From positions 29,946-93,945 of the IMG/VR virus record IMGVR_UViG_3300028898_000252: 64,000 nucleotides of DNA; one strand, written 5' to 3'. The translations under genes were made by a program, and so were the position numbers. This DNA comes from a virus. Lineage: Duplodnaviria; Heunggongvirae; Uroviricota; Caudoviricetes. Each line of letters opens with the position of its first letter. Within the stretch, counting starts at the first letter, position 1. Positions 8,727-50,773 of the stretch are shown piece after piece. The notes beneath the pieces were generated by a model, which was not told the origin of the DNA, made no database searches, and saw only the letters and a list, made by a program, of their open reading frames with translations.

Positions 8727-9179
8727 TTACAGGTCTAACTTATATTTCTCTAAAGAAATTGAATTAAAAAGTTTTGATGGCTGTGTTTTGAAGTCTATTT
8801 GTAATCCACACATAAGAGTCAACTCTTTTCCTTGTTTTGCGGTGTCTGTTTGCCAATAGGTTACCATAACAGGAGAAAGGTTTTTGTTCCAGTGTTTTAT
8901 TGCCGCGATCCAAGTATCCACTGTCTCATTTTTCGATAGTGATTTTCCGTACATTGCCTCAAACAAACCATCTTCTATTTCGACAATAACATCAATGTCT
9001 CTTGGATTAAGAGAACTTAGAATACTTCCAACAAGATATATTTCTTGGTTGTAATATCTTGACCTGATAAATGTTAAGACTTGAACAAGTTTCTTGAGAG
9101 GAATAAAAGAAGATAGGTTTTCTTTTATTGTTGCCTCGCTCAAGGGTGCCCCGCGAGAGAAGCGGCGACAGAGACGCAC
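8727..9179 (-). CDS. minimal nucleotidyltransferase-fold protein (GS-x9-DxD motif)
   Basis: YLVGSILSSLNPRDIDVIVEIED matches the Pol-beta/MNT signature hG[GS]x9-13Dh[DE]h. The annotated N-terminus falls inside a GC-rich element, so the start is uncertain. Confidence 0.5.
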   Translation of the reverse strand: MRLCRRFSRGAPLSEATIKENLSSFIPLKKLVQVLTFIRSRYYNQEIYLVGSILSSLNPRDIDVIVEIEDGLFEAMYGKSLSKNETVDTWIAAIKHWNKNLSPVMVTYWQTDTAKQGKELTLMCGLQIDFKTQPSKLFNSISLEKYKLDL

Positions 9180-9270
9180 CGAGACACGCGGGAGGTTCCA
9201 GAATTATTCTCCAATTCGGGAGGCGGCAACGGTCCCGTGGCTCCGCCGTGTGTCTCCGAAGACTCGTAAA
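9140..9270. other. GC-rich structured element containing CCGCGAGAG and a gagacacgcgg/ccgtgtgtctc stem
   Basis: GC-rich sequence in an AT-rich genome. An 11-bp inverted repeat encloses a loop of about 50 nt. Overlapped by the ends of two ORFs in different frames. Confidence 0.5.
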
Positions 9271-9460
9271 CATATTCGGTTCTTACTTCAATAGGTAAAT
9301 TAAGAATCTTGGCCAAACACCTTTTGCAAACATCTTCGCAGTTGATCAATACAGATGGATTGGTTTTATCTCCTGATTTCATATGAAGATTTATATAACC
9401 GTTTTCTTCTGTGATTATACACCTGCATTTATCGCAGCTGTGTTGTTGGATTAGTGCCAT
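9140..9460 (-). CDS. Zn-ribbon protein (CxxC..CxxC) with a low-complexity C-terminal tail encoded by a GC-rich element
   Basis: SCDKCRC ... CEDVCKRC. The C-terminal 40 aa (GGATGPLPPPELENNSG...) are translated from the GC-rich inverted-repeat element at 9140-9270. Confidence 0.45.
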   Translation of the reverse strand: MALIQQHSCDKCRCIITEENGYINLHMKSGDKTNPSVLINCEDVCKRCLAKILNLPIEVRTEYVYESSETHGGATGPLPPPELENNSGTSRVSRCVSVAASLAGHP

Positions 9461-9464
9461 TGTT

Positions 9465-9899
9465 TTACTCCTTTTTGGTAGATACTGTATCTGTTAGATT
9501 CAAATAAGAAATAAAATTTTCAAGATTTGAAAAAGTAACATATAGATAAAAAATTCCGCCTTCACCTAAAAGTTGAAACTCAACAAAATCCGCAATATCT
9601 GAAATTCTATGATTTAAAATAAGATTAGATTCTTTTACCGAGAATCCTATATTCCTTATATGTTTTAAACTAAAAACACTTGTGCAAGATAACCGTATGT
9701 TTGCCTCCGAAACCAATTCCCAATTTTTTAATTCTCTAATATCTTTGTCCCAAGCATGAATCGATCTTTTTTCAACAAAAAGATCGATATTAAAATCTAT
9801 AGATCCTTTTTCTAAAAGGGTTTTAATTATTTCTTCTGGTTGCTTTGCTGACTGTTTTGTTGTCATTTTGGTTAATCTTCTTTTCTGATTAAGTCCCAA
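9465..9899 (-). CDS. hypothetical protein
   Basis: 144-aa ORF. Confidence 0.5.
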   Translation of the reverse strand: MGLNQKRRLTKMTTKQSAKQPEEIIKTLLEKGSIDFNIDLFVEKRSIHAWDKDIRELKNWELVSEANIRLSCTSVFSLKHIRNIGFSVKESNLILNHRISDIADFVEFQLLGEGGIFYLYVTFSNLENFISYLNLTDTVSTKKE

Positions 9900-11356
9900 A
9901 TATGTTTAAATTCATTTTGTGAATAAGATGAAAGCCTATAACTTTTTCTTTCTGGTTCGTAAGAACTAGGGGCAACTGTTTCAGTTGTTGCATCCACATA
10001 AGCAGAATATTTTCCATCTTTAGTTGTCATTGTTTTGTTCCAGCAGTCAGCTCCAATAACTTCTTTAATTTCTTCTTCAAGATTTTTTGCAAATGTTGTA
10101 TCAATGTTTATTCCGCGATATGGAGTTCTAATTCTTTTTAAGTCACTGTAAGCGTAAAGATGGCAAAGAATTTCTAAAACGTCTTTATTAGATGCTTTAA
10201 CCAAAGATTTTGGTCCTCTTCCAGTGTCTTTATGTCCCAAGAAAGTTACTATTGGATTAAAAGGAAACTCATATAGTTGTTTTATCATTTCAGCAAGTTC
10301 TTGTTTTGAACAAGAACCAACAGGATGTTGCAAACATATTTTGTGGTGGATTGGTGAAATCGTTTCTCCGAGAGAGGTTATAAGATTTTGAATCTCAAGA
10401 ATATCTTTCTTGCTATCAACAGAAAAAGCAAAAGCGCCAACATGATCTTTAATCAGATTAGTTATTAATGGATTTTTTAAAATACTATAATTTTTAGTAG
10501 TAAAGTTTACGGTAAGACCAAGAGAATCATAATACTTTATTATGTCAATAAAATTTGGATGAAGTGTTGGCTCGCCCCCTCCAACCGCAACTTCTAAAAC
10601 TCCAGAATTAAACAGAACTTGTCCAATTTTTTTTATCGTTTCAAATGAAGCGTGTTTTCCTTTTTTTGTTGAATCTTGATAACAATAAGAGCAATCAAAA
10701 GGACAGTAATCAGTAATTTTTAAGTCTACCAATTCTGGTTTTGGTGATGAATTTGGAAGCTCTCCGTTGGAGAACTTTATTTTCATTTTAACTCCAGATT
10801 TTTTATCAAAAATAAGAAAATAATCTCCTGTTTCAAAATATTTTCCAATATAGCCTTCTCCCTTTGGATACTTTTCCAGAAAATATTTTTGATTCCAAAG
10901 CCTAGGGAAAGGAATATTAGCGTTAAAACTTTCTAAATCTGGTGGAGGATTAATTTGAGAAGGTTCGTTATCGTTGCCTCCGTAAATTGCTATGTTTGGA
11001 TTTGAAATCCAATCCACCATTTTTTGAAACCAAACTGGGTGTGGTTCTGTGCCTGTTTCATTTGGAACAACAAACAAGCCCCAAACAGATTCATGATCAA
11101 TATTTCTACCACCAAAATCCCCAGAAAGTTCATGCAACCCATTCCAAGATGAAGCAATTTGTGATTTTAAGTAATCTACTTTTGCCTCTTTTGAAACAAG
11201 TTGAAAGTCTTCCCAATTATAATTTCTCCGACAGGGATTTATATCTTTTAAGAAAGATATGTCTTTATCAAATAAAAGAACTGAGTGAGAACTTGAACTG
11301 TTTGTTGCAAAACCTTCTCGATAGAAGAGAATTCTTGGAGTTGGATTGAATGTCAT
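9872..11356 (-). CDS. radical SAM domain protein
   Basis: CPFDCSYC (CxxxCxxC) followed by AVGGGEPTL. A large N-terminal extension of about 200 aa precedes the domain. Confidence 0.75.
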   Translation of the reverse strand: MTFNPTPRILFYREGFATNSSSSHSVLLFDKDISFLKDINPCRRNYNWEDFQLVSKEAKVDYLKSQIASSWNGLHELSGDFGGRNIDHESVWGLFVVPNETGTEPHPVWFQKMVDWISNPNIAIYGGNDNEPSQINPPPDLESFNANIPFPRLWNQKYFLEKYPKGEGYIGKYFETGDYFLIFDKKSGVKMKIKFSNGELPNSSPKPELVDLKITDYCPFDCSYCYQDSTKKGKHASFETIKKIGQVLFNSGVLEVAVGGGEPTLHPNFIDIIKYYDSLGLTVNFTTKNYSILKNPLITNLIKDHVGAFAFSVDSKKDILEIQNLITSLGETISPIHHKICLQHPVGSCSKQELAEMIKQLYEFPFNPIVTFLGHKDTGRGPKSLVKASNKDVLEILCHLYAYSDLKRIRTPYRGINIDTTFAKNLEEEIKEVIGADCWNKTMTTKDGKYSAYVDATTETVAPSSYEPERKSYRLSSYSQNEFKHIWDLIRKED

Positions 11357-11383
11357 TTTTCTTTCTTTCTCTTTTTAGATTTA

Positions 11384-11884
11384 TCAAAAGGAAGTTGCGG
11401 TTTTTGGAGACTTGGTTTTTATAATTTTAAAATTTGTTCTATCAAGATAAACAAGGATTTCGGGATCACTTTCTTTTTGATAAACTTTATTTAAATTTCT
11501 TTTTTTAAAGAAACTCAAGACCCTTGCACGAAAAGAACGTTTTGGTTTTAAAGCTTCGAATTTTAAATAATTTATATATTCATACGAAACATGATAATAG
11601 CCGCTTTTGCCGCGATTATACAATGTAAATAGATTGCCGTCCCCCTCATGCGGTTTTGAATAAACCACATAGAACAAATCTGTTTCTACAACCAAGTCTT
11701 CTCCACATCTTTCGCACATACACAAAATGAAAGGCGTATAATAATCTTCGAATTCTAAAGGCATAACATAAACAAGTTTAGGGTGTTTGATTGCTAGTTT
11801 GCACCCAAACAGTCTACACGCTAAAGGTTTTTTAGGTTGGCTAGAAACCATCACCAAATCTTTTGACTGATTATCTCTATACAT
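11384..11884 (-). CDS. hypothetical Cys-containing protein
   Basis: 166-aa ORF with paired cysteines (CRLFGC, CMCERC). Confidence 0.5.
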   Translation of the reverse strand: MYRDNQSKDLVMVSSQPKKPLACRLFGCKLAIKHPKLVYVMPLEFEDYYTPFILCMCERCGEDLVVETDLFYVVYSKPHEGDGNLFTLYNRGKSGYYHVSYEYINYLKFEALKPKRSFRARVLSFFKKRNLNKVYQKESDPEILVYLDRTNFKIIKTKSPKTATSF

Positions 11885-11974
11885 GGAAAGCCTTCTGTTG
11901 GTACAAACAAAAAAACTTAACCTCTCGAATAAAGAAGTTAAGTCTTAATTTTAAGACCTTTAAGAAGAAATTAT

Positions 11975-12871: not shown

Positions 12872-12876
12872 TTTGT

Positions 12877-15117
12877 TTACATCCTACTTAGAATTTTGGG
12901 GCGAACAGGATTTAAATAACCACTTAATTTAATAGAGTCAACTAAGTTAATCAACTCTAACAGTTCAGGTATTCCTCTATAACTACTGCTTCCAGTTTTT
13001 AAAAAAGGAACATTGTACCATTCATCAAATTGTTTTTTAAGTCCAATAATTTTAGAAATCCTGTCTTTAAACTGTGGATCGCCGTAATCTGGTTCTCTGT
13101 CATATTTGTATAAAGCAGCCAAGAGTCTTACTTTTCTAGAAGCTTCAATTTCTTTGTCTTTTAATTCATTTAATTGTTTGAAATATTCTTTTACAAAAGG
13201 TGGAGATTTCGAAAGATATAAAGTTTGTATCTCTTCGTCTATAAGACACCCAAGTCCCGATCTGTTTGTCGAATAACTTGACCCAATATAAGATGGTGTT
13301 AAACGGAGAGAAGACATTTCTTCTCCATATGTTCTTTTAGCAGAAGAGGCATACAACAGATATTGTTTCCATTCGTCTGGAGTATGTTTTTCATACTCTC
13401 CCTGAATAAGTTCTTCTACATGGATTGCCCCTTCTTCTGCCATTAACTCTTCAATTTTTTCTCTTGAGACTTGAGAGGTCTTAAATCCATATATATTATA
13501 TCCAGTGGATGCTCTTAAAAATTCTAGGTCTCCTACTCCGTAATTGAATTTATCAGCATCTTTTCTTTCGGGATGTTTTTCATCGTTAAGAAACACATAC
13601 GCTTTCTTGCCTTTATCTTCGTCAAACACCGCAAGAGAGGATCTTGTGAAAGCTTTGTCTGGCATTGAAAACCCAGACCAGTCACAAGTTTCTTCTGTAA
13701 AGTTTGGAAACCAACAAAGTTTGAAAAACAGGGTTTTTGTAAGAGCTTGTTTTCTTTCTTTAGCATCTAGGAATTTGTAATAGTCTTCGAGTTTATGTGC
13801 CCCGATTTCTTTAAGATACAGTTCTTTTTTCTTCTCTGGCGCAACTGCCCTTGTATTAATCAAACAAATCTTGTTATACATACTTGATGTAATCTTAAGT
13901 TTTTCAAGCATTATAAGCATTGCTTTTTCGACAGTTTTGTTAAACTCTCGTTCAGTTTCAACATATAAAACTTTGGATTCGATCCTGTATGCCGTATCAT
14001 TTCCCTTGGTCATCTTTGTAACATATGGAACACTATAGCAACAGCTGTAAGCTCCATAGGTTGATAACTTGACATATTGTTCTATTAATGGTGTTCCTTT
14101 CCAAGAAAAATTAGATTTATCTAAATAAATGCTAAGTTTATTTTTAATTGAATCAAAGTTGATTACCGCATCAGCGTATGATTCTTGCTTGTCGACTTCG
14201 GTTTGAAGTATTTTTTTAACTTCATCTTCGTAGTTTTTAAGAATTGCTAATATTTTCTTTTTGTTCGCATCGCTTTGTTTTAGAGTTTCTCTGTTTGGAG
14301 AGACTTCAAGTTCTCCAGTTTTGAACTCCATATAAAGATTACAGTTTCCAATTTTAACTAAGTTAAAATCAACCATTGTTTCTTGAATTGGATATTCAAT
14401 TTCATCTAATACTGCATACAAACTTTTTCTGTTATGCGGTTCGATAAACCATCTCGTTCCAGACAATAATGGTTTTACTTTTCTTTGATCAACAGAATTA
14501 AATGCGCTAATATTTTTAAAGGTTGGAGGATTTTTCCAGTGTCTTACCACAGAAGTAGATTCTTTGTGAAACTGATCTATGTCTTTGTTCTTAACTGGAA
14601 CAACTATCTCGGTTCCGTTTTTTTCTGTTGTTGGTTGCTCCGACATTAACTGTAAAATGCCACGTTCGGTTTCGTCTATGATTGCGCAGTAACTTCTTTT
14701 GATTCCATCAATAAAAGTATTGATTATGAAAGAATCTGAATAACCAAACGCAGACTTTGCTCCCAAGCCAAAACCACCTGTTTCAGTATTTGATCCACGT
14801 TTTGTGGAATTGCCATACTGAATAAAAACATTTGACATACGTTCAGGTGAAATTCCTGGGCCGTAATCCCTACATTTCCAGTGCAGGTCGTAAGCAGTTG
14901 GTAATGTAACCAACACCTTAGTTTGTGGCGAGTTAACTTCTCTGTGTGCGTCGCGGGCATTACAAATATACTCTTGAGCAATTGTCCGAATAATATTTGA
15001 ATATAGTTGCCCTCTTAAAAGAGTAAGAACGAAACCAACATCCCCAATGTCGAATTTTTCTTCTTTTTTTACTCCAAAGCTTTCTAGGTTATGATCTTTT
15101 GTCTCAGCAATCTTCAT
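12877..15117 (-). CDS. GHKL-family ATPase (Hsp90/MORC/histidine-kinase-like ATP-binding fold)
   Basis: N-box EYICNARDAH. G1 box DYGPGIS. G2 box ETGGFGLGAKSAFGYS, close to Hsp90 GxFGVGFYSAF. 746 aa. Confidence 0.7.
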   Translation of the reverse strand: MKIAETKDHNLESFGVKKEEKFDIGDVGFVLTLLRGQLYSNIIRTIAQEYICNARDAHREVNSPQTKVLVTLPTAYDLHWKCRDYGPGISPERMSNVFIQYGNSTKRGSNTETGGFGLGAKSAFGYSDSFIINTFIDGIKRSYCAIIDETERGILQLMSEQPTTEKNGTEIVVPVKNKDIDQFHKESTSVVRHWKNPPTFKNISAFNSVDQRKVKPLLSGTRWFIEPHNRKSLYAVLDEIEYPIQETMVDFNLVKIGNCNLYMEFKTGELEVSPNRETLKQSDANKKKILAILKNYEDEVKKILQTEVDKQESYADAVINFDSIKNKLSIYLDKSNFSWKGTPLIEQYVKLSTYGAYSCCYSVPYVTKMTKGNDTAYRIESKVLYVETEREFNKTVEKAMLIMLEKLKITSSMYNKICLINTRAVAPEKKKELYLKEIGAHKLEDYYKFLDAKERKQALTKTLFFKLCWFPNFTEETCDWSGFSMPDKAFTRSSLAVFDEDKGKKAYVFLNDEKHPERKDADKFNYGVGDLEFLRASTGYNIYGFKTSQVSREKIEELMAEEGAIHVEELIQGEYEKHTPDEWKQYLLYASSAKRTYGEEMSSLRLTPSYIGSSYSTNRSGLGCLIDEEIQTLYLSKSPPFVKEYFKQLNELKDKEIEASRKVRLLAALYKYDREPDYGDPQFKDRISKIIGLKKQFDEWYNVPFLKTGSSSYRGIPELLELINLVDSIKLSGYLNPVRPKILSRM

Positions 15118-15213
15118 CTACTATAGCCTTTTATTCTCTCGATACAGCTCAACTGTAACGCTGGCCCTTTAAGTCGTAAAGGGCCATTAACAATTGAAAT
15201 GAGATTATATTAA

Positions 15214-16164
15214 TTACATACTTGATAGGTCGCCAGGATCTTTCCAACAATCTATATCAAGATAAGCAGTAAAATAATCCACCAAGTCTCCAGTATGAAG
15301 GTCTTCTTTTCTCATCCAAAGAAGAAAAGGCTCATCGAAAACAAGAGGATTTTCTTTTGGCCGAATTGATGTTGCGCATCTCGTTACAGCAACAGCCGCG
15401 GCACTTTTAGCTCTTGCACCATGTTCATTTAATTTAAACTTGGTTTGTTGCAGAGCTTGCGACAAACACATTTCTTCTTCTTTCTCAGAAGAATTCAGTT
15501 TTGCCATAAATGACATTCCAAGCAAATAAGATAGATCTGATTCATAGTTTAGATCAATTTTTGGAATTGTTACAGAAGAATAGTTTTGGTATTCTTTTCT
15601 TTTTACGTTAAACATTTCTTCCGCAGAGATTTCTCTCAAGGTTTTAATTTGTTCTGCCGTGAATGGACCTTTTGCAAGGTACATGCTATCCACAAATTTA
15701 TCATTTTTTTGTTTAAGATCAATTCGAGCATAAATTATATCATCAACGAGAAACGTATCGAAAGAATTTGAAATTTTAATTGAGGGATAAGAAGTAACTT
15801 TGCCTTCTTTTGCAACGATCATGTTGGTCGATTGTGCTTTTTCAACCCATTCAACTAATATATCCATAATAGCAGCGGCACCAAAATCTGTTGGATTTTC
15901 AAATTTATCCAACTTGATATCAAATCCATTATCTGATAAAAACTTGTTTATTTCTTCGTGAGAAAACGAGGCAACACATCTCATTTCTTTTTCAGAAAAG
16001 AAATTCAAGTAACCATTTGTAATATATGGTTTATAAATTCCATTTAAGAACTTTCTTTGCTCTGGAATGATATGTTTCCAGGGAGATGTTGCTTTTCCTG
16101 TAAACTCAATTGCAGATTTTAATGCCGCGACAACAGGCGGCATCACAGACACAGATGAACTCAT
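15214..16164 (-). CDS. hypothetical protein
   Basis: 316-aa ORF. Its start overlaps the stop of the upstream gene by 4 nt. Confidence 0.55.
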   Translation of the reverse strand: MSSSVSVMPPVVAALKSAIEFTGKATSPWKHIIPEQRKFLNGIYKPYITNGYLNFFSEKEMRCVASFSHEEINKFLSDNGFDIKLDKFENPTDFGAAAIMDILVEWVEKAQSTNMIVAKEGKVTSYPSIKISNSFDTFLVDDIIYARIDLKQKNDKFVDSMYLAKGPFTAEQIKTLREISAEEMFNVKRKEYQNYSSVTIPKIDLNYESDLSYLLGMSFMAKLNSSEKEEEMCLSQALQQTKFKLNEHGARAKSAAAVAVTRCATSIRPKENPLVFDEPFLLWMRKEDLHTGDLVDYFTAYLDIDCWKDPGDLSSM

Positions 16165-16908: not shown

Positions 16909-18978
16909 TTAAGGAATCAATTCTTGAAGATTGTTTTGTCCAACAAGTTTAACATCTTTTAAGTTTTCTGTTTCAATTGAATCGGAATAAACAAACAATT
17001 CTTGTTGTGTCTCTTTGTTTTGTTTTTCTTTATACAATTCAATTATCTCTCCAATTTTAAAGAAATCTTTTTCAACAATTGATTTAACAAGAAGAGAAGC
17101 GTTCTTTGAATTCTTTTCAACCATTCCCATAAAACTAAAAGAATTTAATGAGAGGTGCATCCATTTAGCGACCCATTTATTTCCGCGGCGCATGAAAACA
17201 AGAGGCAACGAAAGTTGTGATTTTCCTTGCAGTTCAGATTTGAACTTAACAGTTTTTGGTTCGAATGCCAATCCTTTTTCGGATTGATTTCTTTCCATGA
17301 ACCCAAAGAAAACCTCTTTCGCTTCGTCAAACTTCTCTCCAGAAAACACATTAATCTGCGGAATGATATATTCCACATCGCTTGGGATTTGATTTAGTCT
17401 TATGTCGATAAATTCTGATGCACCATTAGGTGCCGATGTTATATCTCCGCTGTGTGTCGCATAAGAGTTTCCTAATCTTGTAAACGAGACTTGCGAGGCT
17501 AAGTTAAAATTCTTATCCAAGAAAATTGTTGATAAGTCGTAATCTGTTCTTATTTGGTTTTGATGCCAATAGATGAAAAATCTAAGGGTGTCAACATCTG
17601 ATATTGGTGTCTCTGATCCAATTGGTAGAATACCAATTCCTCTTGGTTTTAATTTATCAGATGTTGGTAGCGCCACAGTCTCAAGTTCTTTTGAAACCGT
17701 AATTTCTTTATAAGATTTAATTCTTGATTTAAGAACTTCTTTCAAATCTTTGATAACCGTTTCGACAGTGGAAGAATCAATTTTCTCAATTGAATTTTTC
17801 ATTTCAAAATAAGATTTGCCTTTTTTGTTTGTATAAATTTTCATTTTGCCGTTTCTGTTTCTCAAGTGTTGAATTAAAGAAATAATAATCTTGCTCGAAA
17901 AGGATTGATAAAACAATTGAAGTTCGGAAGGAGAAATGTCTTTGTTTTCTCTTAAAACTCTATCCAAGTTTCTTCCCAAAAGCGAAGGATATTCCTTAAA
18001 GAAAGAAAAAATATTTTCCTTGTCTTTTGATAATAACACAGCTTCAAGTTTCGAAGCTACAGTTTGAACTGTCTTCGTATCTCCCCTTATTTCATCAAAG
18101 AAAGTTTTTATAGTTTTGAATTTCGATTCGTGTGGGTGAATTTTTTCACCAATTCTTTTCCACTCTTCTCGATAAGAAAGAGCGTCGGCAATCGAGTTGG
18201 AATTTCTTTCCATTAAAGAATTTAATTCCTTAAATATTGTTTTTCTTAGTTTCCTTGGAAACTTCTTAAACTTTGTTTTTTCTGTTAGAGTAACATCCCC
18301 AGAATTCATCGCTACGACAAACCTTAACAAGTCTGTCGATGTTGAAAACATCATATCAAGACTTCTATCGTGTTTTATTTTGTTTAAAAGTGCTAAATTT
18401 TCTTTAATTGTTGGAGTAAATCCATTTATACTTTCATTAGGAATAAATTCTTCGTGACTTGAAATAAATTCAAGATCATTTGCAGACAAAGGAATAGATG
18501 ACTCTACGAGTTGTTTTGTTCTTAATAAAACTTCTTCTTTAAATGTTAAACCAAGATTTAGCATCTTGAAATATCGAGAATGGTTTTCAATAAACTCTTC
18601 TTTGTTTTTTTGATATTCCTCAAATGTATGAGTTACATTTTTTCCATAAAAACAAAACAGATTAAATAGTTCCATATCGGAAGGATGAAATCCTCCCTTT
18701 TCAAAATTTTGGAAGAATGGATTATAGTTTTTTGTAAGTCCAAGTTTTTCTAAAAGTTTGCTTAGTATAACGTCAAGTTGTTGAATTTCTTCTTTTGAAA
18801 GTTTCTCTGCCCAAAATGTTAACTCTGGAGAAAACGTCCACCCAAATGTCATAAACTTAGTTTGAAGTTGTGAACTTGTTTCTACACTAGAAACATTTCG
18901 TGGCTTAGCTAAGCCAAGCACATCTACAGGAAGTCTTTTTGTTTCTGCAACTAGATTTATAACTGTTTCGATTTTCAT
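16909..18978 (-). CDS. hypothetical large protein
   Basis: 689-aa ORF with no recognisable motif. Confidence 0.6.
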   Translation of the reverse strand: MKIETVINLVAETKRLPVDVLGLAKPRNVSSVETSSQLQTKFMTFGWTFSPELTFWAEKLSKEEIQQLDVILSKLLEKLGLTKNYNPFFQNFEKGGFHPSDMELFNLFCFYGKNVTHTFEEYQKNKEEFIENHSRYFKMLNLGLTFKEEVLLRTKQLVESSIPLSANDLEFISSHEEFIPNESINGFTPTIKENLALLNKIKHDRSLDMMFSTSTDLLRFVVAMNSGDVTLTEKTKFKKFPRKLRKTIFKELNSLMERNSNSIADALSYREEWKRIGEKIHPHESKFKTIKTFFDEIRGDTKTVQTVASKLEAVLLSKDKENIFSFFKEYPSLLGRNLDRVLRENKDISPSELQLFYQSFSSKIIISLIQHLRNRNGKMKIYTNKKGKSYFEMKNSIEKIDSSTVETVIKDLKEVLKSRIKSYKEITVSKELETVALPTSDKLKPRGIGILPIGSETPISDVDTLRFFIYWHQNQIRTDYDLSTIFLDKNFNLASQVSFTRLGNSYATHSGDITSAPNGASEFIDIRLNQIPSDVEYIIPQINVFSGEKFDEAKEVFFGFMERNQSEKGLAFEPKTVKFKSELQGKSQLSLPLVFMRRGNKWVAKWMHLSLNSFSFMGMVEKNSKNASLLVKSIVEKDFFKIGEIIELYKEKQNKETQQELFVYSDSIETENLKDVKLVGQNNLQELIP

Positions 18979-19187
18979 TTTATTTCTTTCCTTTTATTTC
19001 ACTTGTTTTGCTTTATACAAATTTTGATGCAACAACCAAGAGTATCAACAATATCAACGCGCAAAAAATTGACAACAAATATTCTTTATTCAAGGATATA
19101 AACTCCTTTATCTTAAACAAGAGGCTTTTTAGCTTTTGCATGGTGCGGAAGTTTAGCCGCGGTGCGTAGAGTTGTCAAGCACCAAGT

Positions 19188-23938: not shown

Positions 23939-24123
23939 TAAAACTTCAAGTAGAGAAACATAACGTAAATTGTTGTTATGCTCATTGCTAAACCAATAAT
24001 CACACCAATAAAATGAAACAAATAGTGGATACCGATTTGTTTCAACGCTGTGATTATTGCAGTTTTTATCAAAGGTTGCGCCTCTCTGGTCCTAAGTCTA
24101 GGGGCTCGGAAAAGCGGTGTCAA
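23926..24123 (-). CDS. small membrane protein
   Basis: 65 aa, hydrophobic (HYLFHFIGVIIGLAMSITTIYVMFLYL). Confidence 0.4.
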   Translation of the reverse strand: MTPLFRAPRLRTREAQPLIKTAIITALKQIGIHYLFHFIGVIIGLAMSITTIYVMFLYLKFYCLH

Positions 24124-24400
24124 TCCGCGATGTTAGCTCAGTGCATTCGAAAGGAATAATCGCCCCCTTGACACCTAGAGCATCTTATTTACGCTAAACC
24201 TCCCTCGCAACAGCCGTTTTATCCCCTCTCGCGCGCGCGGGCAATTGAAGGCACAAAACGCGACAGTGCGGTTGACAACTAGGTTTTGAGTGGTTCAGCT
24301 AGACCCGTGCAACAAATAATCTCCGCAACTTATTTCTTAAGTGTTTTAACAGTTGTGTTGCTGTTGCATTTGGCAGTAACAATAAAAACAAGAAACAAGA
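24124..24400. promoter_or_regulatory. GC-rich divergent intergenic region with TGTCAA/TTGACA inverted repeat and a CGCGCGCGAGAGGG-type motif
   Basis: GGTGTCAA..(45 nt)..TTGACACC is an 8-bp inverted repeat. ccctctcgcgcgcgcggg is the reverse complement of the CGCGCGAGGG motif family. Second TTGACA at 24274. Confidence 0.45.
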
Positions 24401-24406
24401 TCAAAG

Positions 24407-24646
24407 ATGATAAACATCCTAATACTCATAATTGCTAATCTGTTTTTCATATTAACAATTGGTTCAATGTTGGTAGAAATAAACAATTTAAGTAAAAAGA
24501 AAGAGTTATTAAGAAAAGAAAAAAACCTAGAAGAAGAACAAAATATTGAAGGATTAAGAAACTCAATGATTGTTTATGTTGTTATGGGAACTATAACTTA
24601 TGCTTCGTTTATTAAACTTATCGTAGAAATGTATACAAATAAATAA
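24407..24646 (+). CDS. small membrane protein
   Basis: 79 aa. N-terminal TM helix ILILIIANLFFILTIGSMLV, then a charged coiled region. Confidence 0.45.
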   Translation: MINILILIIANLFFILTIGSMLVEINNLSKKKELLRKEKNLEEEQNIEGLRNSMIVYVVMGTITYASFIKLIVEMYTNK

Positions 24647-24666: not shown

Positions 24667-25239
24667 ATGAAAAAATACTTTTGCTTTGATACAGAAACAG
24701 GTGGTCTTTCAGAAAGAACAAGTTTGTTAACCCTATACGGGATTATAACAGATGAAAATCTAGAACCCGTAGATTCTATTAGTTTAAAACTAAAACCTTC
24801 AGACGGGGTATTTCTTGTAGAAGGACAGGCATTAGAAATAAACAAAATTAATTTAGATAAACACTCCAGGGTTGCTGACACTTATGAAGTTGGGGCAAAA
24901 AAACTAAAAGATTTTTTGTCAAGACATGTAGAAAACCATACGAGAAAACTTGATATTATTGGCCAGAACGTTATAGAGTTTGATATTCCAAGAGTTAAAA
25001 ACTTTCTCTTGTCTGACGAAGAATTCTCTTTTTATTTTTCGAGAGAAACCAAAGACACAAAGGTGCAAGGAATATTTCTAAAAACACTTGGAATAATTCC
25101 TGGAGATGTTAACTCGTCATTGATAACCCAGCTTAAATTCTTTTTTCCAGATTTAAACCTTGATGGGCACCACGATGCAAAATGGGACACCGAGCACACA
25201 TTAAAACTCTATAAGAAACACGTTTCTATTCTAGAATAG
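24667..25239 (+). CDS. DEDDh 3'-5' exonuclease (DnaQ-like); possible TAG readthrough extension to 25572
   Basis: Exo I CFDTETGGL. Exo II IIGQNVIEFD. Exo III HHDAKWD. The stop is TAG at 25237-25239. The downstream ORF 25273..25572 lies in the same frame with only 11 sense codons between. Confidence 0.75.
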   Translation: MKKYFCFDTETGGLSERTSLLTLYGIITDENLEPVDSISLKLKPSDGVFLVEGQALEINKINLDKHSRVADTYEVGAKKLKDFLSRHVENHTRKLDIIGQNVIEFDIPRVKNFLLSDEEFSFYFSRETKDTKVQGIFLKTLGIIPGDVNSSLITQLKFFFPDLNLDGHHDAKWDTEHTLKLYKKHVSILE

Positions 25240-29678: not shown

Positions 29679-30124
29679 AAGAAACTTTTTCTGTTTCTGT
29701 AACAGGTCACCGCGATTTGTTTCACGATGAAAAAGAAATAGAAAAAAAGTTTTTGAATTTTATTGATATTCAAAAAGGGTTAAATCCCGACAAAGAAATT
29801 GTTGTAAACACAGGAATGGCAGTAGGATTTGATCTTCTTGTTGCCGAGATTTGTCTAAAACAAGGAATAAAATATAACGCCATATTGCCTTTTGAAGATC
29901 ATCTTAAAACCAATGAAATCTTTTGCTTGTTAAAAGAAGCGGCAAACAAAGTTGTGGTGGTCTCAGAAGGACCATATGCGAAATACAAATATTTTATAAG
30001 AGATGTTTGGTTGGTTGATAATGCAAATGTCTTATTTGCATACTTGATTAAACCAGGAAAAAGTGGAACACGATTAACAGTTGAAGAAGCAATAAAAAAG
30101 AAAAAAGAGGTTATTTACTTCTGA
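29675..30124 (+). CDS. SLOG/YpsA-like (DUF1273-like) protein
   Basis: N-terminal MKETFSVSVTGHRDLF and TGMAVGFD resemble the YpsA/DUF1273 SLOG family. The track start 29630 is probably too early. Confidence 0.5.
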   Translation: MKETFSVSVTGHRDLFHDEKEIEKKFLNFIDIQKGLNPDKEIVVNTGMAVGFDLLVAEICLKQGIKYNAILPFEDHLKTNEIFCLLKEAANKVVVVSEGPYAKYKYFIRDVWLVDNANVLFAYLIKPGKSGTRLTVEEAIKKKKEVIYF

Positions 30125-31474: not shown

Positions 31475-31503
31475 TTGACAGCTTCGCGGAGGTTGCTTAC
31501 ACT
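31475..31503 (+). promoter_or_regulatory. sigma70-type promoter for the suppressor tRNA
   Basis: -35 TTGACA (31475-31480), 17-nt spacer, -10 TACACT (31498-31503). The tRNA 5' end at 31510 sits at the predicted start site. Confidence 0.6.
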
Positions 31504-31509
31504 TCTCGC

Positions 31510-31581
31510 GTTTCGCTAGTTCAGCGGTAGAACGGCGGGCTCTAAACCTGCAAGTCATAGGTTCGATTCCTATGCGGAGCA
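31510..31581 (+). tRNA. amber suppressor tRNA (anticodon CUA, reads UAG)
   Basis: Acceptor GTTTCGC/GCGGAGC with two G:U pairs. D-arm GTTC-AGCGGTA-GAAC. Anticodon stem GCGGG/CCTGC, loop CTCTAAA with U33 and A37. T-arm ATAGG-TTCGATT-CCTAT. Discriminator A. No CCA encoded. Confidence 0.8.
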
Positions 31582-31610
31582 CAAACAAAAACATAAAAAG
31601 GAAAACAAGA

Positions 31611-44820: not shown

Positions 44821-45210
44821 ATGTCAATTAAAATAAAAAAGAATACAGTTTTAAAACCGAAAAGAAAACCTTACACATTCACCATTGACTGCTTTGAAGC
44901 GATAGAAGAGTTTACGACGCAAGAATATAATAAAGAGGAAGATGCTGACGATGAAAATCCTTTTTATGGATTTTATGCCTCGACTTATTATACGGAAAAC
45001 AAAAAGGAATTACAAAAAATAAAAAAAGAAGGCAAACCTTTTAGTTTGGCCTTCTTTGTTGATGAAGAAGTTGAATTACTATTAATTGAAGAAGATAGAA
45101 AATATGAATCTTGGAGAGTGTTGGTTACAAAAATAAAAAACTCAAAACCTCTTGCGAGTTTTGAGTGTTATATAAAATCACTTGTTTTATCAAACCTATT
45201 CGATGATTAA
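44821..45210 (+). CDS. hypothetical protein
   Basis: 129-aa ORF. Confidence 0.45.
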   Translation: MSIKIKKNTVLKPKRKPYTFTIDCFEAIEEFTTQEYNKEEDADDENPFYGFYASTYYTENKKELQKIKKEGKPFSLAFFVDEEVELLLIEEDRKYESWRVLVTKIKNSKPLASFECYIKSLVLSNLFDD

Positions 45211-46616
45211 CAATCATCATCATCGAGTGTAATGTTTGCGGAGCGCATGATTTTCTTTCTTTGAGATATTGCCCCGAGAACTTTGTCAATATCCTTTTCT
45301 TCGATTAAGTAGAATTCAACCCATTCCTTAATGTAAGCTTGAGTCATTCCTTTGACAGCTTTTACGAGCTTCTCAAGATGTTCTTGATTTGGGTTTGGTT
45401 CTCCAAGTTTTTCGACCAAAAGTCTTTTGATAAAATCAAGACGTTGTACTTCATCAGGTTCTTTGAATTGAATAATCTCGTCAACTCTACCTGGACGAAG
45501 CATTGCTGCATTTAATTTCTTGATATCGTTAACAGTCATCATAACTGTTGTTTTGTGTTCCATTGTTTTTAATGACTCTAAGATATAGAGAAATGTTTGA
45601 TTTTGATCTAAACCTGTAATAAAGTGATCTACGTCATCTAGTACAATTAAGTCTGCCCCAATTTTTAAACAAAACTGCTTCAACATTTTATTTTCATTAA
45701 ACTGCTTAATAAAGCTGCTGTCTATTTTTAACACTCTTCCAGAAGTTCTGTTTGCAAGTGTTAACACAAACAAACTTTTTCCTGTTCCTGGAGGACCCCA
45801 CAACATAATAGTTCTTTGCATGTTTTTGTTCTTAAATCTTTTGATTCTTGATTCAAGATCAGCAATAAAAGGTTCATCAACCAAATAATGTTTTTGGTCA
45901 TGTCCTTGAGAAACTGGGGATATTTGTAGGTTGCCGTTATTATCTGCGAACAAGTGAAGTTTGTTGCTTACCTTGTCAAACAAAACGTTGATAATGCTGA
46001 AGTAGTCGTCGCCTTTTTTGAAGGCGAAAACATCCTCGAACGCGCCTCTCGAAAGAGATGATTTACCACTAGATGATTTTGAGTTCGCGAGCGTTTCTTG
46101 ATTTGAAATCGCAATAATTGGAATTAACTTTCCCTTAACATTAAAAATATATTCAATAACATATTCGTTTTTATTCAAGGTGCCCAAAACTTTAACACTA
46201 TCCGCAAAGTTTGCCACGGTTGGCAAATAAGCAGAAGTGAATTCATCATCAACCAAAACATCGAAATCAGGTTTCTTGTCTTCAATTAAAGACTTAAAGT
46301 CCCAATGTGGATCTTCAATGTCATTATGACGAGAATTCAAAATTTGGTTAAACAACCCGTTTGCTTTTGTCGCAATTTGAATTGGAGTGTCTAGTGCGTT
46401 TGGAGTAAACTCTGAATACTCTTCCACTTTCTCGATGGCTTGTTTAAATTTATATCTCTGCATTCTAAATCTTTTCGGAAGAAACCTTGTGGAAAGAAAA
46501 TACATCCCAGCTATTATTCCAAAGATTGCAAGTTGCGCGAGTATCTTTACCCACACAGTTTTGAAATAAGTGATTATTTCACTCAGAACCCACTTTATTA
46601 GTCGCATAGCGCACAT
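45207..46616 (-). CDS. AAA+ ATPase with an N-terminal TM segment
   Basis: Walker A LWGPPGTGKS. Walker B DLIVLDDVDH. N-terminal helix ILAQLAIFGIIAGMYFL. Confidence 0.75.
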   Translation of the reverse strand: MCAMRLIKWVLSEIITYFKTVWVKILAQLAIFGIIAGMYFLSTRFLPKRFRMQRYKFKQAIEKVEEYSEFTPNALDTPIQIATKANGLFNQILNSRHNDIEDPHWDFKSLIEDKKPDFDVLVDDEFTSAYLPTVANFADSVKVLGTLNKNEYVIEYIFNVKGKLIPIIAISNQETLANSKSSSGKSSLSRGAFEDVFAFKKGDDYFSIINVLFDKVSNKLHLFADNNGNLQISPVSQGHDQKHYLVDEPFIADLESRIKRFKNKNMQRTIMLWGPPGTGKSLFVLTLANRTSGRVLKIDSSFIKQFNENKMLKQFCLKIGADLIVLDDVDHFITGLDQNQTFLYILESLKTMEHKTTVMMTVNDIKKLNAAMLRPGRVDEIIQFKEPDEVQRLDFIKRLLVEKLGEPNPNQEHLEKLVKAVKGMTQAYIKEWVEFYLIEEKDIDKVLGAISQRKKIMRSANITLDDDDC

Positions 46617-46644
46617 TGATAGCCGCGCGAGGGCGCGGTGTCAA
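46616..46644 (-). promoter_or_regulatory. candidate sigma70-type promoter abutting the AAA+ gene start, overlapping a CCGCGCGAGGGCGCGG hairpin
   Basis: Minus strand: -35 TTGACA (46644-46639), 17-nt GC-rich spacer containing the palindrome CCGCGC-GAGG-GCGCGG, -10 TATCAA (46621-46616). The -10 overlaps the first ATG, so translation would be leaderless or start at Met4. Confidence 0.4.
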
Positions 46645-46696
46645 GGCTATGCAAGAATCCAAATAAAAAAGTTATATTAAAAAGAAAAAATATTTT

Positions 46697-46987: not shown

Positions 46988-47011
46988 ATTCTAGTTGACA
47001 TTTTTAAAACT

Positions 47012-47311: not shown

Positions 47312-47314
47312 CTC

Positions 47315-48226
47315 ATGAAACCAGCTATAACAGAAAACGGCAAATTCAAAAAGAAACAGAAAGCAATAAATCAATCTTATGGTGGAGAAGAAGATGAAAA
47401 GCTTTTTATGGAATACCACGCAAGTAAAGTATACGACCAAAAAGGCAACCTAGAAAAAAGCAATGAAAAACTTAGAAACCAATTAACCCTCAGAAATCAA
47501 AAACTTGTTAATACTTTTATTTCCCTTATTGGAAATAAAAACAAAGTAGTGGTGAGAAAATATAAAGAAGATCTATTTCAAGAAGGTTTAATTGGATTAT
47601 CAAAGGCAATAGAACATTTTGATCCAACAAGAGGAATAAGGTTTTCGACATATGCAGGACACTGGGTTCTCCAGGCAATTACTTCTTATATCGCAAAACA
47701 ACAATTCGTTGTTGCCATCCCTACCCAGCTTAGATTAGCGTCGAATAAAATTCTTTCTTTTATGAAAGAGAATAAAAAAGAAACAACAGAAGAAATTTCT
47801 TTTGAAGAAAAAGAAGAACTTAAAAAACAATATAAAATACCAGAAAAAATATATCTTGATGCTGTAAAAGAAATAAAATCGGGATTTAATTCTTCAAACG
47901 TTTACAACACAATGGATAAAAGAATTGTTTATTTTGAACAGCCTTTGACGACTATTGCCTCGTCTTCTGCTCAGACAGATTCTTCATTTACTTATGAGCG
48001 GTTTTTAAAAGATAATGACGTTAATGTTTCTTATAACGAACCAATTTCATTATTAAACGAAACCCAAAGTTTAATTTCAACAAGTGAAGATGTGGTTTCT
48101 GCTGTCCATAAAACACTGCTAGAACTTGATCCACTTAAAAGATTAATTTTAATATTGAGGTTCATGGGAATAAAAAATATAGAAAACGAAAAGGAAATAG
48201 AATCAATTGGAACTCAAACAATATGA
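47315..48226 (+). CDS. sigma-70 family RNA polymerase sigma factor (regions 2 to 4.1 recognisable)
   Basis: GLIGLSKAIEHFDPTRGIRFSTYAGHWVLQAITSYI matches sigma70 region 2.1-2.4. The C-terminus LKRLILILRFMGI..EIESIGTQ resembles region 4.1. The ORF stops before a region 4.2 recognition helix. Confidence 0.8.
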   Translation: MKPAITENGKFKKKQKAINQSYGGEEDEKLFMEYHASKVYDQKGNLEKSNEKLRNQLTLRNQKLVNTFISLIGNKNKVVVRKYKEDLFQEGLIGLSKAIEHFDPTRGIRFSTYAGHWVLQAITSYIAKQQFVVAIPTQLRLASNKILSFMKENKKETTEEISFEEKEELKKQYKIPEKIYLDAVKEIKSGFNSSNVYNTMDKRIVYFEQPLTTIASSSAQTDSSFTYERFLKDNDVNVSYNEPISLLNETQSLISTSEDVVSAVHKTLLELDPLKRLILILRFMGIKNIENEKEIESIGTQTI

Positions 48227-48521
48227 AAAATACGTTACTGTAACGGAAGGAATGGATTACAGAACAATTTCAAAAGAACTTTTAAAACTTGGAGTGAACT
48301 TAAAACACGCAACAGTTAGGAACATAACCGAAAAAACAATGCCCGTGTTTTTAGATGCCTTCATCGAAAATGCAGGATTTGATCAAGAAAAAATAAACAA
48401 AGAAACCGTTTTAAAAACAGTTCAATTCTATGATAATCTAATTGAAATCATTGGTAAAGTAATTGCAAAAAATCCAGATCTCGTAAAAACAACAATAAAG
48501 GAAATAAAAGACTCAAAATGA
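48207..48521 (+). CDS. small HTH-like protein resembling sigma region 4.2 (true start probably the ATG at about 48252)
   Basis: TISKELLKLGVNLKHATVRNITEK resembles TLEEIGKxLGVSRERVRQIExKA. Overlaps the sigma gene in a different frame. Confidence 0.45.
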   Translation: MELKQYEKYVTVTEGMDYRTISKELLKLGVNLKHATVRNITEKTMPVFLDAFIENAGFDQEKINKETVLKTVQFYDNLIEIIGKVIAKNPDLVKTTIKEIKDSK

Positions 48522-48850
48522 AAAATGTATCATTTGGAAGAAAATATGACAAGAGAGATACAAAAGAAGGTATGCCTCTAGAAAGATTTCTTGAAAGACG
48601 AAAACTTGAATTATCTGAATGGTTAAGTGATAATAAAATAAAATCTGTAACAGATGCCGAAGAAAAGGTTAAAACTTTAGGTATTTGCATTACCTCTAAG
48701 AGCTTGAAAGACATAATTGACTATTTTGAAAAACCGATTTCCTTCGATACTCCGAATCCCCAACCTCTGTTAGAAACGAATTTGGAATTGCCCCTAGAAA
48801 AACCAAAAAAGAAAAAAGCACCTTCCGACGCTTCACCTGAAACCCTATAA
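48518..48850 (+). CDS. hypothetical protein
   Basis: 110-aa ORF. Confidence 0.45.
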   Translation: MKNVSFGRKYDKRDTKEGMPLERFLERRKLELSEWLSDNKIKSVTDAEEKVKTLGICITSKSLKDIIDYFEKPISFDTPNPQPLLETNLELPLEKPKKKKAPSDASPETL

Positions 48851-49156
48851 CCTACTCCCATCACCAACCAATACTTTCTGTCAAGTGGCTATTATTTTTT
48901 GTCTGTCGCTTTCTTTGTGGTCACTACACTAAGAGGGTCTGGGAGGGAAGGATTATTTCTTATTATCTTCTATAGACTGATTAGTACTAATCTCGGTGGA
49001 GTTATTAGGATTAGTAAGACCTATTACTAATGAACTAATCAGGTCATCTACGTCTTTGGCCTCTTGAGGAAAATTCTCTTTAAGTTCTTTTATCAAAGGG
49101 AGTTCTTTAATTTCTAAGAGGAGGTTCTCTGGTTTTAAATTCATTATGAGTTGATA

Positions 49157-50731
49157 TTAATATATATTCGACTCTTCTGTATAGCTTCCTGGAAATTTCA
49201 TTTTAGCTACTAGGTCTTGAGGTCTAATGTTGTCAGGTTCTTTTCCTGAAGGTGTTATGAGCCATAACACTTTTGCTTGTAGTGGTTCAAGTTCTGGAGC
49301 ATATCCATCTGTTAAAATTACAACCCATCTCCAGTTTCTTTTTTGCTGTGTTGGATCTTCTATAAACTTTTTTATGGCATTGAAGTCTGTGCCGCCTGAT
49401 CTTGTTCTTTTCCAAGAATATGCTAAGTTGTTTTTCCAAACAACATGAGAAGAAACATCTACTTCTGTATCAAAGTTATAAACATCTACCTCAATGATTT
49501 TTGCACAATTTGCCGCTTGAGCAAATGCAAGTTGTACTTCATCATTTGACATGGACCCAGATTGATCGATAAAAAACGCAATTGGCTGAGATGTTCTTTT
49601 CTTTTCTCCAGGTAACATCATTGGAAGTTTTTTAGAAATTTTACGATATGTACTTTCATGGTCTTGAATTCTGCACTGACCAATTGCATTTTCAAGAAGC
49701 ATTCTCCAATCAACAGGAGATTCTGCCGCAATTTTTCCCATCACTTCTTTAATTGCAGCACTCATAGAGCCCCAGCTGTTTTGTTTAGAGGCTGCATTAA
49801 GAGCTTCTTTAATATGATTTCTCATATTGGACTTGACCTCTTCTCTAATTTCTTTAGGAAGATCTTCCCAATTATGAGAATCAAATCCTGTAAGACCATT
49901 TAGTTTATCTCCACAGCCATTTAAAAAGATTTTTACTTTTCTTCCATTTCCTTCCCCTTCTTTTTTATTTTTAGATTCTTGATTTTTTAGAAAGTCTTTT
50001 ATTTTATTGAAATAAAACACAGTGGTTTGCAGTTGCGGTAACGTAGCAACAAACTCCGCAAATTCTTCGTTTTCTATGTTTGGTTTTCGGCCTGGGTAAA
50101 ATCCTACTTCTAAAGGAAACAGCGCAATATCAGGATTCATATTTTCTGTTGCCGCTAAAATCATCGAGTTAATCGCCAAGTCCATCGCAATATTTGCGAT
50201 GTGCATTTCATAAACATCTTGAGATAATATCGTTCTATCAGTTAAGTGACCTAACAAGGTGTGCAACACTTCGTGAATAAACAAGAAAGCAATTTCTTTA
50301 TAAGGTTTATTAGTTGATGAAGTGATAATTTGTCCCGTTATTTTATCTTTATATTTGCCACAAAGTTCAGCATCAATAAATTCGGGGTTATACCCAAGGA
50401 TATAAGTTATCCTTCCAGTTTCTTTATAAAACTCATAATCGAATTTAACATATGCAGTCTGCTCTTTCCAGTCTTCTTTGATTATAAATCTATTAATAAT
50501 TCTTCCATAAAAAGGTTCTTGCACAAAGAATACATTGAGTAACCATTTGATATAGCTGTAATCCTTGTTTGGATCTCTTTTGTATTCTTTTTTCGAGAGG
50601 CTTTCCCCGTGTTGATTTTCTGTAAGTTCTTTGTCCATCGTTTTCTGCCTTTTTAAAGTTGCTAGTTTCGTCCATAGCCTACACACGCGCGTGCAAATTG
50701 TCAAGGTCCGCGCGAGGGAGTGTGTTGACAC
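49157..50731 (-). CDS. metallopeptidase-like (HExxH) plus VWA-domain protein, DUF2201/CoxE-like partner of the MoxR ATPase
   Basis: HEVLHTLLGH (HExxH). IAFFIDQSGSMSNDE (VWA MIDAS motif). The track starts at GTG 50731. The likely ATG is near 50640 (MDKELTENQ). Confidence 0.7.
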   Translation of the reverse strand: MSTHSLARTLTICTRVCRLWTKLATLKRQKTMDKELTENQHGESLSKKEYKRDPNKDYSYIKWLLNVFFVQEPFYGRIINRFIIKEDWKEQTAYVKFDYEFYKETGRITYILGYNPEFIDAELCGKYKDKITGQIITSSTNKPYKEIAFLFIHEVLHTLLGHLTDRTILSQDVYEMHIANIAMDLAINSMILAATENMNPDIALFPLEVGFYPGRKPNIENEEFAEFVATLPQLQTTVFYFNKIKDFLKNQESKNKKEGEGNGRKVKIFLNGCGDKLNGLTGFDSHNWEDLPKEIREEVKSNMRNHIKEALNAASKQNSWGSMSAAIKEVMGKIAAESPVDWRMLLENAIGQCRIQDHESTYRKISKKLPMMLPGEKKRTSQPIAFFIDQSGSMSNDEVQLAFAQAANCAKIIEVDVYNFDTEVDVSSHVVWKNNLAYSWKRTRSGGTDFNAIKKFIEDPTQQKRNWRWVVILTDGYAPELEPLQAKVLWLITPSGKEPDNIRPQDLVAKMKFPGSYTEESNIY

Positions 50732-50773
50732 GCGCGCCAGAGTGGTTAACCTGTGCCGAGGTAAATCGACAAA
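50680..50773. promoter_or_regulatory. GC-rich divergent control region between the VWA gene and the MoxR gene, carrying CCGCGCGAGGG
   Basis: cacacgcgcgtg palindrome. TTGTCAAGG tccgcgcgaggg agtgtg TTGACA cgcgcgcc. -35-like hexamers on both strands. Confidence 0.5.

Follow-up and report, generated by a model that had tools for sequence, protein, structure and literature searches.

In a 64,000-nucleotide (nt) stretch of a Caudoviricetes genome (IMG/VR record IMGVR_UViG_3300028898_000252, positions 29,946 to 93,945; the whole of this stretch is called “the window” below), whose GC content is 34%, short GC-rich words such as the 11-mer CCGCGCGAGGG stand in intergenic regions between gene blocks. 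The sequence-only reading, made from the letters of the window, had taken these words for a discrete family of CCGCGCGAGGG-type elements and had offered three candidate roles for them: operators for a regulator, sigma-factor-specific promoter elements, or mobile sequences that carry promoters. The promoter role proved to be essentially right, as the words belong to promoter regions of the sigma-70 type; we consider it likely that they make up the spacers, the start-site regions and the upstream flanks within a single predicted class of sigma-70-type promoters in an AT-rich jumbo-phage lineage. The feature is real but was misframed: it is a conserved class of predicted GC-rich promoters of the sigma-70 type, some of them giving putatively leaderless mRNAs, and there is no CCGCGCGAGGG family. 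Conservation extends to the promoter architecture together with its GC and CpG richness, and not to the 11-mer.

The predicted promoter class

The 11-mer occurs exactly twice in the window, at 46623-46633 and 50708-50718, against a shuffle expectation of 0.00, so that the improbability claimed for the GC-rich words and the count of two copies both hold, while the positions first given for them (46627 and 50730) were off by 4 and 22 nt. In shuffles that keep the islands' own dinucleotide content, the probability of an 11-mer common to any two islands is p ~0.016. All seven CGCGCG copies in the window fall within three divergent intergenic regions, which we call A (24124-24406), B (46608-46696) and C (50639-50773); region C holds three of them, whose starts (50686, 50709 and 50731) follow one another at intervals of 22-23 nt. 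The variant noted near 24226 on the reverse complement is present, in a longer form, at 24224-24241 (reading CCCGCGCGCGCGAGAGGGG on the minus strand), and the palindrome CCGCGC-GAGG-GCGCGG is a real hairpin at 46623-46638 (DNA fold z = -3.1). TTGACA or TGTCAA boxes do lie beside the GC-rich words, at 24118-24123 (-), 24168 (+), 24272 (+), 46639-46644 (-), 50699-50704 (-) and 50725-50730 (+), and not at 24135/24185 and 50709/50735, where the inverted flanks had been placed. As a plain word, TTGACA is not enriched in the window (48 observed vs. 56 expected).

On both strands of regions A-C, TTGACA is followed after 16-17 nt by TAnnnT, directed outward to each flanking gene. Aligned on the -10 element, the class has the consensus gGG-TTGACA-N10/11-GCGTG-NN-TAnnnT, in which 16-17 nt in total separate the two hexamers. 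A seed pattern (TTG..., 10-12 nt, GTG, 2 nt, (T/C)AnnnT) yielded 19 GC-rich sites across the window and related contigs, and from these a two-block position weight matrix (PWM) was built, which finds 13 window sites at ≥14 bits (0-1 in Markov nulls) and 10 at ≥18 bits (0 in the nulls). Five strong window sites were absent from training (19178-, 24123-, 24272+, 31475+ and 46644-), and each of them is intergenic and has the orientation of the gene that follows. Conservation is strongest at T-34 (0.97), T-12 (0.89), A-11 (0.95), T-7 (0.97), G-17 (0.86), T-16 (0.78) and G-15 (0.86), and the inner positions of the -10 are unconserved, so that the hexamer reads TAnnnT. The -35 box is a perfect TTGACA at nine of the ten listed window sites and TTGACG at the tenth, the spacer measures 16 or 17 nt at every one of the 37 retained sites, and each of the ten listed window sites is directed at a gene or tRNA, with a start codon mostly 0-60 nt from the predicted start. 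GC content runs at 0.5-0.69 from about -47 to +5, compared with 0.34 for the genome, and CpG density reaches its maximum at -22 to -18. Alternating purine-pyrimidine runs at the sites average 7.4 nt, vs. 5.0 in shuffles (0 of 5000 shuffles as high), with a maximum of 17 nt; they are due mostly to the conserved GCGTG-YR-TA core.

Within this architecture the GC-rich words serve as spacers (46623-46638, 50682-50698 and 50731-46), as the gap between back-to-back -35 boxes (50708-50718) and as upstream flanks. At three places two or more promoters of the class would stand back to back and fire outwards, and it is this arrangement, along with the self-complementarity of CGCGCG, that gives rise to the palindromic TGTCAA...TTGACA appearance. 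The same class would also drive the tRNA cluster, the suppressor tRNA and several genes within co-directional blocks: five of about ten predicted promoters are co-directional, and likewise five of about ten fall outside the sites that had been singled out at first. The placement of all sites at divergent or turning points of transcription stands for the CGCGCG regions A-C; it fails for a fourth site, at 9152, which lies inside a co-directional minus-strand block. We infer that the GCGTG element and the GC-rich spacer are signals of the promoter class itself and not sites for a separate regulator.

Region C contains a back-to-back pair. The predicted promoter of the VWA/DUF2201 gene (50676-50704, minus strand) consists of TTGACA at 50704-50699, the 17-nt spacer ATTTGCACGCGCGTGTG and TAGGCT at 50681-50676 (PWM score 34.6 bits), and the gene probably starts at ATG 50638, at a distance of 31 nt from the predicted start and with a ribosome-binding site of the AGG type, and not at GTG 50731. 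Its partner on the plus strand (50725-50752; 32.7 bits) has TTGACA, the 16-nt spacer CGCGCGCCAGAGTGGT and TAACCT and is predicted to drive the MoxR-like AAA ATPase gene (50774-52057), whose ATG follows the predicted start by 15 nt and is preceded by GAGG. One exact copy of the 11-mer (50708-50718, plus strand) lies in the 20-bp gap between the two -35 boxes. In region B, the putative promoter of a second AAA ATPase gene (46616-46644, minus strand; 23.2 bits) is made up of TTGACA at 46644-46639, the spacer CCGCGCCCTCGCGCGGC, which holds both the other 11-mer copy and the hairpin at 46623-46638, and TATCAA at 46621-46616.

Region A has a leftward predicted promoter (24095-24123, minus strand; 17.6 bits, also picked out by a generic sigma-70 scan) with TTGACA at 24123-24118, a 17-nt spacer and TAGACT at 24100-24095, and a conserved 14-nt block, GCTAACATCGCGGA, upstream of it. 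The rightward predicted promoter (24272-24300, plus strand; 25.9 bits, untrained) heads the operon that begins at 24407 and carries TTGACA, a 17-nt spacer ending in GAGTGGT, and TCAGCT. Another TTGACA box, at 24168-24195 (plus strand; 12.0 bits), is uncertain as a promoter: conservation covers the box and AATAATCG upstream of it, and the -10, TACGCT, is poorly conserved.

The remaining predicted promoters lie away from these regions. The suppressor tRNA (anticodon CTA; tRNA at 31510-31582) has one at 31475-31503 (plus strand; TTGACA, spacer GCTTCGCGGAGGTTGCT, TACACT; 20.1 bits, untrained), and four others are on the minus strand: at 19150-19178, upstream of gene 16909-18978 within a co-directional block (19.6 bits, untrained); at 8632-8659, upstream of gene 8073-86xx (30.4 bits; ATG 28 nt from the predicted start); at 7638-7665, heading the minus-strand tRNA cluster (23.5 bits; identical in contig L015); and at 58975-59002, inside an array of paralogous genes, upstream of 58455-589xx (30.6 bits).

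The notion of a discrete CCGCGCGAGGG family did not survive, as the 11-mer takes different places relative to the promoters (within a promoter spacer at 46.6 kb, upstream of both -35 boxes at 50.7 kb) and is conserved only in a 98%-identical strain. The 9152 site drops out altogether: it is a 2-mismatch match only, without CGCGCG and without a PWM match, and it is protein-coding. The GC-rich stretch in question (9130-9263, minus strand) encodes the C-terminal tail of a small zinc-ribbon-like protein (9140-9460), and this tail, TEYVYESSxxHGGxTGPxPPPELENNS, is conserved in contig L016, where the radical-SAM protein is 49% identical. The DNA differences from L016 over the tail are mostly at third codon positions, and the conserved tail and these third-position differences together identify 9130-9263 as coding sequence and not as an element. 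Folding of 9120-9275 is no more stable than that of shuffles. The small protein itself (9140-9460, minus strand) has a CxxC...CxxC pattern and a conserved GC-rich Gly/Pro tail (HGGxTGPxPPPELENNS), and in the window genome the end of its gene overlaps the start of a nucleotidyltransferase-like gene (8727-9179).

Conservation, start codons and predicted leaderless mRNAs

The window has no close DNA or protein relatives among cultured phages or IMG/VR contigs, and a metagenome scan with its radical-SAM protein returned distant loci only. The relatives used here (contigs numbered with an L) came from metagenome protein clusters only, by way of three protein searches and twelve contig look-ups for synteny. 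Contigs related or nearly identical to the window are present in samples SRR34217540, SRR32119647 and SRR24742789. The window carries 12 tRNA genes plus one CTA-anticodon suppressor tRNA and encodes rIIA/rIIB homologues, a radical-SAM enzyme, the VWA/DUF2201 protein, the MoxR-like ATPase, the second AAA ATPase and a sigma-70-family protein; distant homologues of the window ATPase are located on contigs of 290-340 kb. On the strength of these homologues and of the gene content, we read the window as the putative non-structural portion of an uncultivated jumbo phage. A scan of Genome Taxonomy Database (GTDB) genomes for clues to the host was uninformative, with three matches at 31-34% to unrelated metagenome-assembled genomes (Flavobacteriales, Patescibacteria and Planctomycetia).

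Counterparts of these predicted promoters are found at the orthologous places in relatives whose protein identity is 72, 66, 55 or 51%. In region C the divergent pair persists at 72, 66 and 55% identity: TTGACA is followed by a GC-rich spacer, which has GCGTG or GAGTG at its end, and by TAnnnT; the architecture of the 50704 promoter recurs at the orthologous site in L001, L002 and L005, and promoters orthologous to that at 50725 are found in L002, L005 and L007. The 11-mer, on the other hand, is kept in L001 (98% protein identity) and absent from L002, L005 and L007-L009, with unrelated GC-rich sequence in its place at 72-55% identity. All five substitutions that separate the window from L001 in the 116 nt of region C lie within the two spacers, and the -35, GTG and -10 are unchanged, suggesting that the exact spacer sequence is free to vary and the boxes are not. 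The region B counterparts in L007, L008 and L009 read TTGAC(A/G)-N16/17-TA(A/T)(C/G)AT with CGCG-rich spacers. For region A, an alignment of the window with L010 and L011 shows no change in the -35 and -10 boxes of the leftward promoter or of the second rightward one (that at 24272, conserved in both contigs), and the block upstream of 24123 is invariant as well. The orthologous suppressor tRNA in L012 also has a CGCG-rich promoter in front of it, TTGACC-N16-TATACT.

At six sites in five genomes (two of the sites, in L017, outside the training set), a long open reading frame (ORF) opens with an ATG that stands 1-4 nt from the predicted start and has no Shine-Dalgarno sequence ahead of it, implying that some promoters of the class would give leaderless mRNAs; genes with longer leaders have ribosome-binding sites of the GGAG or GAGG type. 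The AAA ATPase gene downstream of region B (45207-46607, minus strand) is one such case, as it has no Shine-Dalgarno sequence in any of four genomes and its ATG follows the -10 by 7-9 nt (L007 5862, L008 5721, L009 ~5790). The aligned N-terminus (M..IKW...EI..YF, aligning at IKW) sets the ATG, so that the start codon is likely ATG 46607-46605, with an mRNA that would be leaderless, and the listed ORF start at 46616 is probably three codons too long. Transcription from the promoter at 31475 is predicted to begin exactly at the 5' end of the suppressor tRNA.

The suppressor tRNA (window 31510-31582, plus strand; L012 3083-3155), which reads UAG, has its own predicted promoter, and the tRNA is conserved in a 51%-identity relative. 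TAG is the stop codon of 3 of the 86 ORFs of at least 80 amino acids, with TAA used in 50 and TGA in 33. A single in-frame TAG junction, at 25237, was checked as a candidate for read-through and was discarded, since the relatives have TAA there.

Sigma factors, operators and other readings

Several known promoter types share parts of this architecture. The phage early promoters that are read by sigma-70 or sigma-A (T4 early, T5, lambda PL/PR) resemble the window class in their -35 TTGACA, their 16-17 nt spacer and a -10 with A-11 and T-7, and both types head early-type operons, including divergent back-to-back pairs; unlike them, the window class has a GC/CpG-rich spacer, flank and start region within a 34% GC genome, a -10 that is just TAnnnT, GCGTG at -19 to -15, and several predicted leaderless mRNAs. 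Extended -10 (TGn) promoters and the TRTG motif of the Gram-positive -16 region likewise have TG just upstream of a weak -10, but classical extended -10 promoters often do without a -35, whereas the window class keeps a perfect one and places its TG two bases (not one) before the -10, within the longer GCGTG. Mycobacteria have TANNNT -10 promoters and abundant leaderless transcripts, and the Caulobacter sigma-73 consensus is TTGACGS-N10-14-GCTANAWC; between them they share with the window class the TAnnnT -10, the GC-rich context, G/C-T before TA, the TTGAC(A/G) -35 and leaderless starts, yet they belong to high-GC genomes, while the window class forms GC-rich islands in an AT-rich one. The stringently controlled rRNA/tRNA promoters of the E. 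coli rrnB P1 type have GC-rich discriminators, and the window class too is GC-rich between -10 and start, with two of its promoters predicted to drive tRNA genes; the difference is that its GC richness extends to the spacer and upstream of the -35.

Literature searches gave no description of this promoter type. As a variant of a known one, GC-rich promoter islands in an AT-rich phage are a useful but fairly ordinary result. They do provide a usable promoter model for an uncultivated jumbo-phage lineage, one with which the starts of operons, leaderless genes and the correct start codons can be annotated in this phage and in related contigs, and they are a caution against hasty calls of mobile elements or operators, since a lone GC-rich word in AT-rich phage DNA can be no more than the mark of a promoter.

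We infer, with somewhat better than even confidence, that the class is read by the host primary sigma factor, and the promoters would then probably be early ones. The host factor is favored because the -35 and spacing are canonical, because the phage's own sigma factor has no detectable region 4, and because the genes driven are of early type. The phage sigma gene (47315-48226, plus strand) encodes region 2 and, weakly, region 3 of RpoD/SigA/RpoS; in Pfam, no Sigma70_r4 or other region-4 match was found in it or in the adjacent ORF, even at E = 10.

A number of points weigh against this picture, either in the promoter class itself or in its assignment to the host. A generic sigma-70 consensus scan gave a site total no higher than in shuffles and missed most members of the class, and the -10 hexamers are a poor match to TATAAT. 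The conserved TG stands at -16/-15, two bases before TA and one base farther from the -10 than the TG at -15/-14 of a classical extended -10, so the apparatus that reads it could be non-standard. The use of the listed sites as transcription starts is a prediction from sequence. A remote region 4 in the phage sigma factor could have escaped Pfam; the sigma gene lies a few hundred bases from region B; and the DNA ahead of the sigma operon is AT-rich and has no promoter of the class, as expected if sigma is expressed first. Finally, a block at 24226-24245 is strongly conserved but lies outside the promoter model, so some GC-rich words may have a second role.

The last points about the sigma gene would suit an alternative that we consider unlikely, in which the class is read by the phage sigma-70-family protein, perhaps together with the product of the small ORF at 48207-48521, the promoters being middle or late ones and GCGTG-TAnnnT setting them apart from AT-rich host-type promoters. 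Two points are in its favor: the sigma gene is next to region B in all relatives, and standard sigma-70 promoters do not have the GCGTG element that the class shows at -19 to -15. The canonical TTGACA and its canonical spacing argue against it, as do the lack of a detectable region 4 and the nature of the genes driven, which have typical early functions (tRNAs, a macro-domain/ADP-ribosylglycohydrolase operon, ATPases). By eye, the phage protein also lacks the residues which we take to be those that read the -35 and the TG in E. coli sigma-70. When the DNA ahead of the remaining genes was searched by k-mers for another promoter motif, of the kind that a phage sigma factor might use, nothing convincing emerged. 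The small ORF (48207-48521, plus strand) overlaps the end of the sigma gene in all relatives and has a helix-turn-helix-like stretch by eye (YRTISKELLKLGVNLKHATVRNI), with no Pfam match. A split sigma factor, with region 4.2 on this ORF, was also considered and found no support in Pfam.

It is improbable that the CGCGCG-type words are operators, overlapping the promoters and allowing a phage or host DNA-binding regulator to control the divergent units. Such a regulator would fit the even spacing of the three region C boxes and the recurrence of TTGC(A/C)CGCGCG in regions A and C of several relatives. However, the same word is not found in a fixed position across the relatives: the 11-mer is not conserved past the 98% strain, the position of CGCGCG relative to the -35 and -10 differs between promoters, and no longer common word emerges. 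The substitutions between the window and L001 sit exactly in the spacer CGCGCG words, the reverse of what purifying selection would do to an operator.

The better argument for an operator comes from two other sequences, the 14-nt block upstream of 24123 and the block at 24226-24245 (CTCTCGCGCGCGCGGGCAAT), which are conserved beyond what the promoter model needs. No other non-coding block of region A is as well conserved as the latter, whose end is 27 nt upstream of the 24272 -35 box; read on the minus strand it amounts to no more than a weak promoter (TTGCCC-N17-TAAAAC, 8.8 bits), and it forms no stable hairpin. Both blocks are near-invariant in the window, L010 and L011, as conserved as the boxes themselves, and for them neither a partner protein nor any symmetry was identified. 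It is possible that a regulator binds at these two blocks, and not at the 11-mer.

We regard as decidedly improbable the idea that the GC/CpG-rich island is itself a functional signal, marking, by GC-rich spacers with many alternating purine-pyrimidine runs, a dedicated promoter set that is read through a non-canonical GCGTG contact, possibly by the phage sigma factor lacking region 4 or by a phage-modified polymerase, and making the class responsive to DNA supercoiling or able to escape proteins that silence AT-rich DNA. If GC-rich spacers did tune promoters in this way, whether to supercoiling, to growth state or for an escape from silencing, spacer and discriminator effects would have a natural system in this lineage, but this is speculation.

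The mobile-element role, in which repetitive extragenic palindromic (REP) or miniature inverted-repeat transposable element (MITE)-like sequences spread promoters, can be rejected with very little hesitation. It might be suggested by how short, GC-rich and in part palindromic the words are against an AT-rich background, by the two identical copies of the 11-mer, and by a TnpB/IS605 gene in a 98% relative, but islands resemble one another over 9-11 nt at most, terminal repeats and target duplications are absent, and the islands remain at orthologous gene junctions down to about 50% identity. In IMG/VR, scans with a 14-mer and a 20-mer brought up no copy in a related context: nothing matched the 20-base pattern from region A, and the 14-mer CGCGCGCGGGCAAT gave mostly GC-rich chance matches and one unrelated AT-rich phage family. 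It is just as hard to credit that the words are chance sequence or intrinsic terminator hairpins at block boundaries, even with a stable hairpin at 46623-46638 and with CGCGCGCGGGCAAT forming a hairpin plus T-run in that unrelated family, as the shuffle expectation is 0 copies, no transcript ends are expected in three divergent regions, the hairpin is followed by no T-run and is not listed by a terminator scan, and the sequences are conserved as promoters in relatives. In an Rfam search of the whole window only tRNAs reached the gathering score, with nothing credible at 8900-9500 or 24050-24450.

In the unrelated family (IMG/VR contigs L025, L037, L059, L067, L068, L078, L086, L089, L100, L127 and L137), CGCGCGCGGGCAAT is conserved within the near-palindrome ATTGCCTCGCGCGCGGGCAAT; on the other strand a T-run follows the near-palindrome in the manner of a terminator, and GTGACA...TGTCAC inverted repeats adjoin. 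We judge the shared word to be a coincidence and not homology.

Other features of the window

At least 17 tandem paralogous genes of 120-190 amino acids, with 35-60% mutual identity and no family assignment, occupy 54042-63943 on the minus strand, and the array is also present in L005, L007 and L008. A 530-nt AT-rich gap in the array holds direct repeats of ~60-100 nt (TGGTTTCTATTTGGTTAAACCTTCATTAATTTGATTAATTTTCTATTAAA...) at 59200-59500, in which Tandem Repeats Finder detected just a weak 20-nt period; this repeat region could be iteron-like or origin-like. GC skew is very strong across 57-59 kb (-0.41 to -0.55), and a G-run-rich tract, GGTGGAGGGTAGCGGGGTTGTGGAGTGGGGGAAGGTGGAAGGAGG, lies at 59040-59090 (G-rich on the minus strand), directly upstream of the 59002 promoter.

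Just downstream of the 7665 promoter are two tRNA-like sequences on the minus strand, at ~7515-7590 and 7765-7830, each with a T-arm and acceptor end (...GGTGCAAATCCAAGGGGGCTCACCA and ...GGTTCAAGTCCGAAGCTTGGAGCA), for which ARAGORN and Rfam gave no call. L015, a 98%-identical relative, carries a TnpB/IS605-family gene (14488-15780) in its tRNA region, with duplicated tRNA-adjacent sequence on both sides; the window has no such gene. In L016, a TnpB-like gene adjoins the radical-SAM gene.

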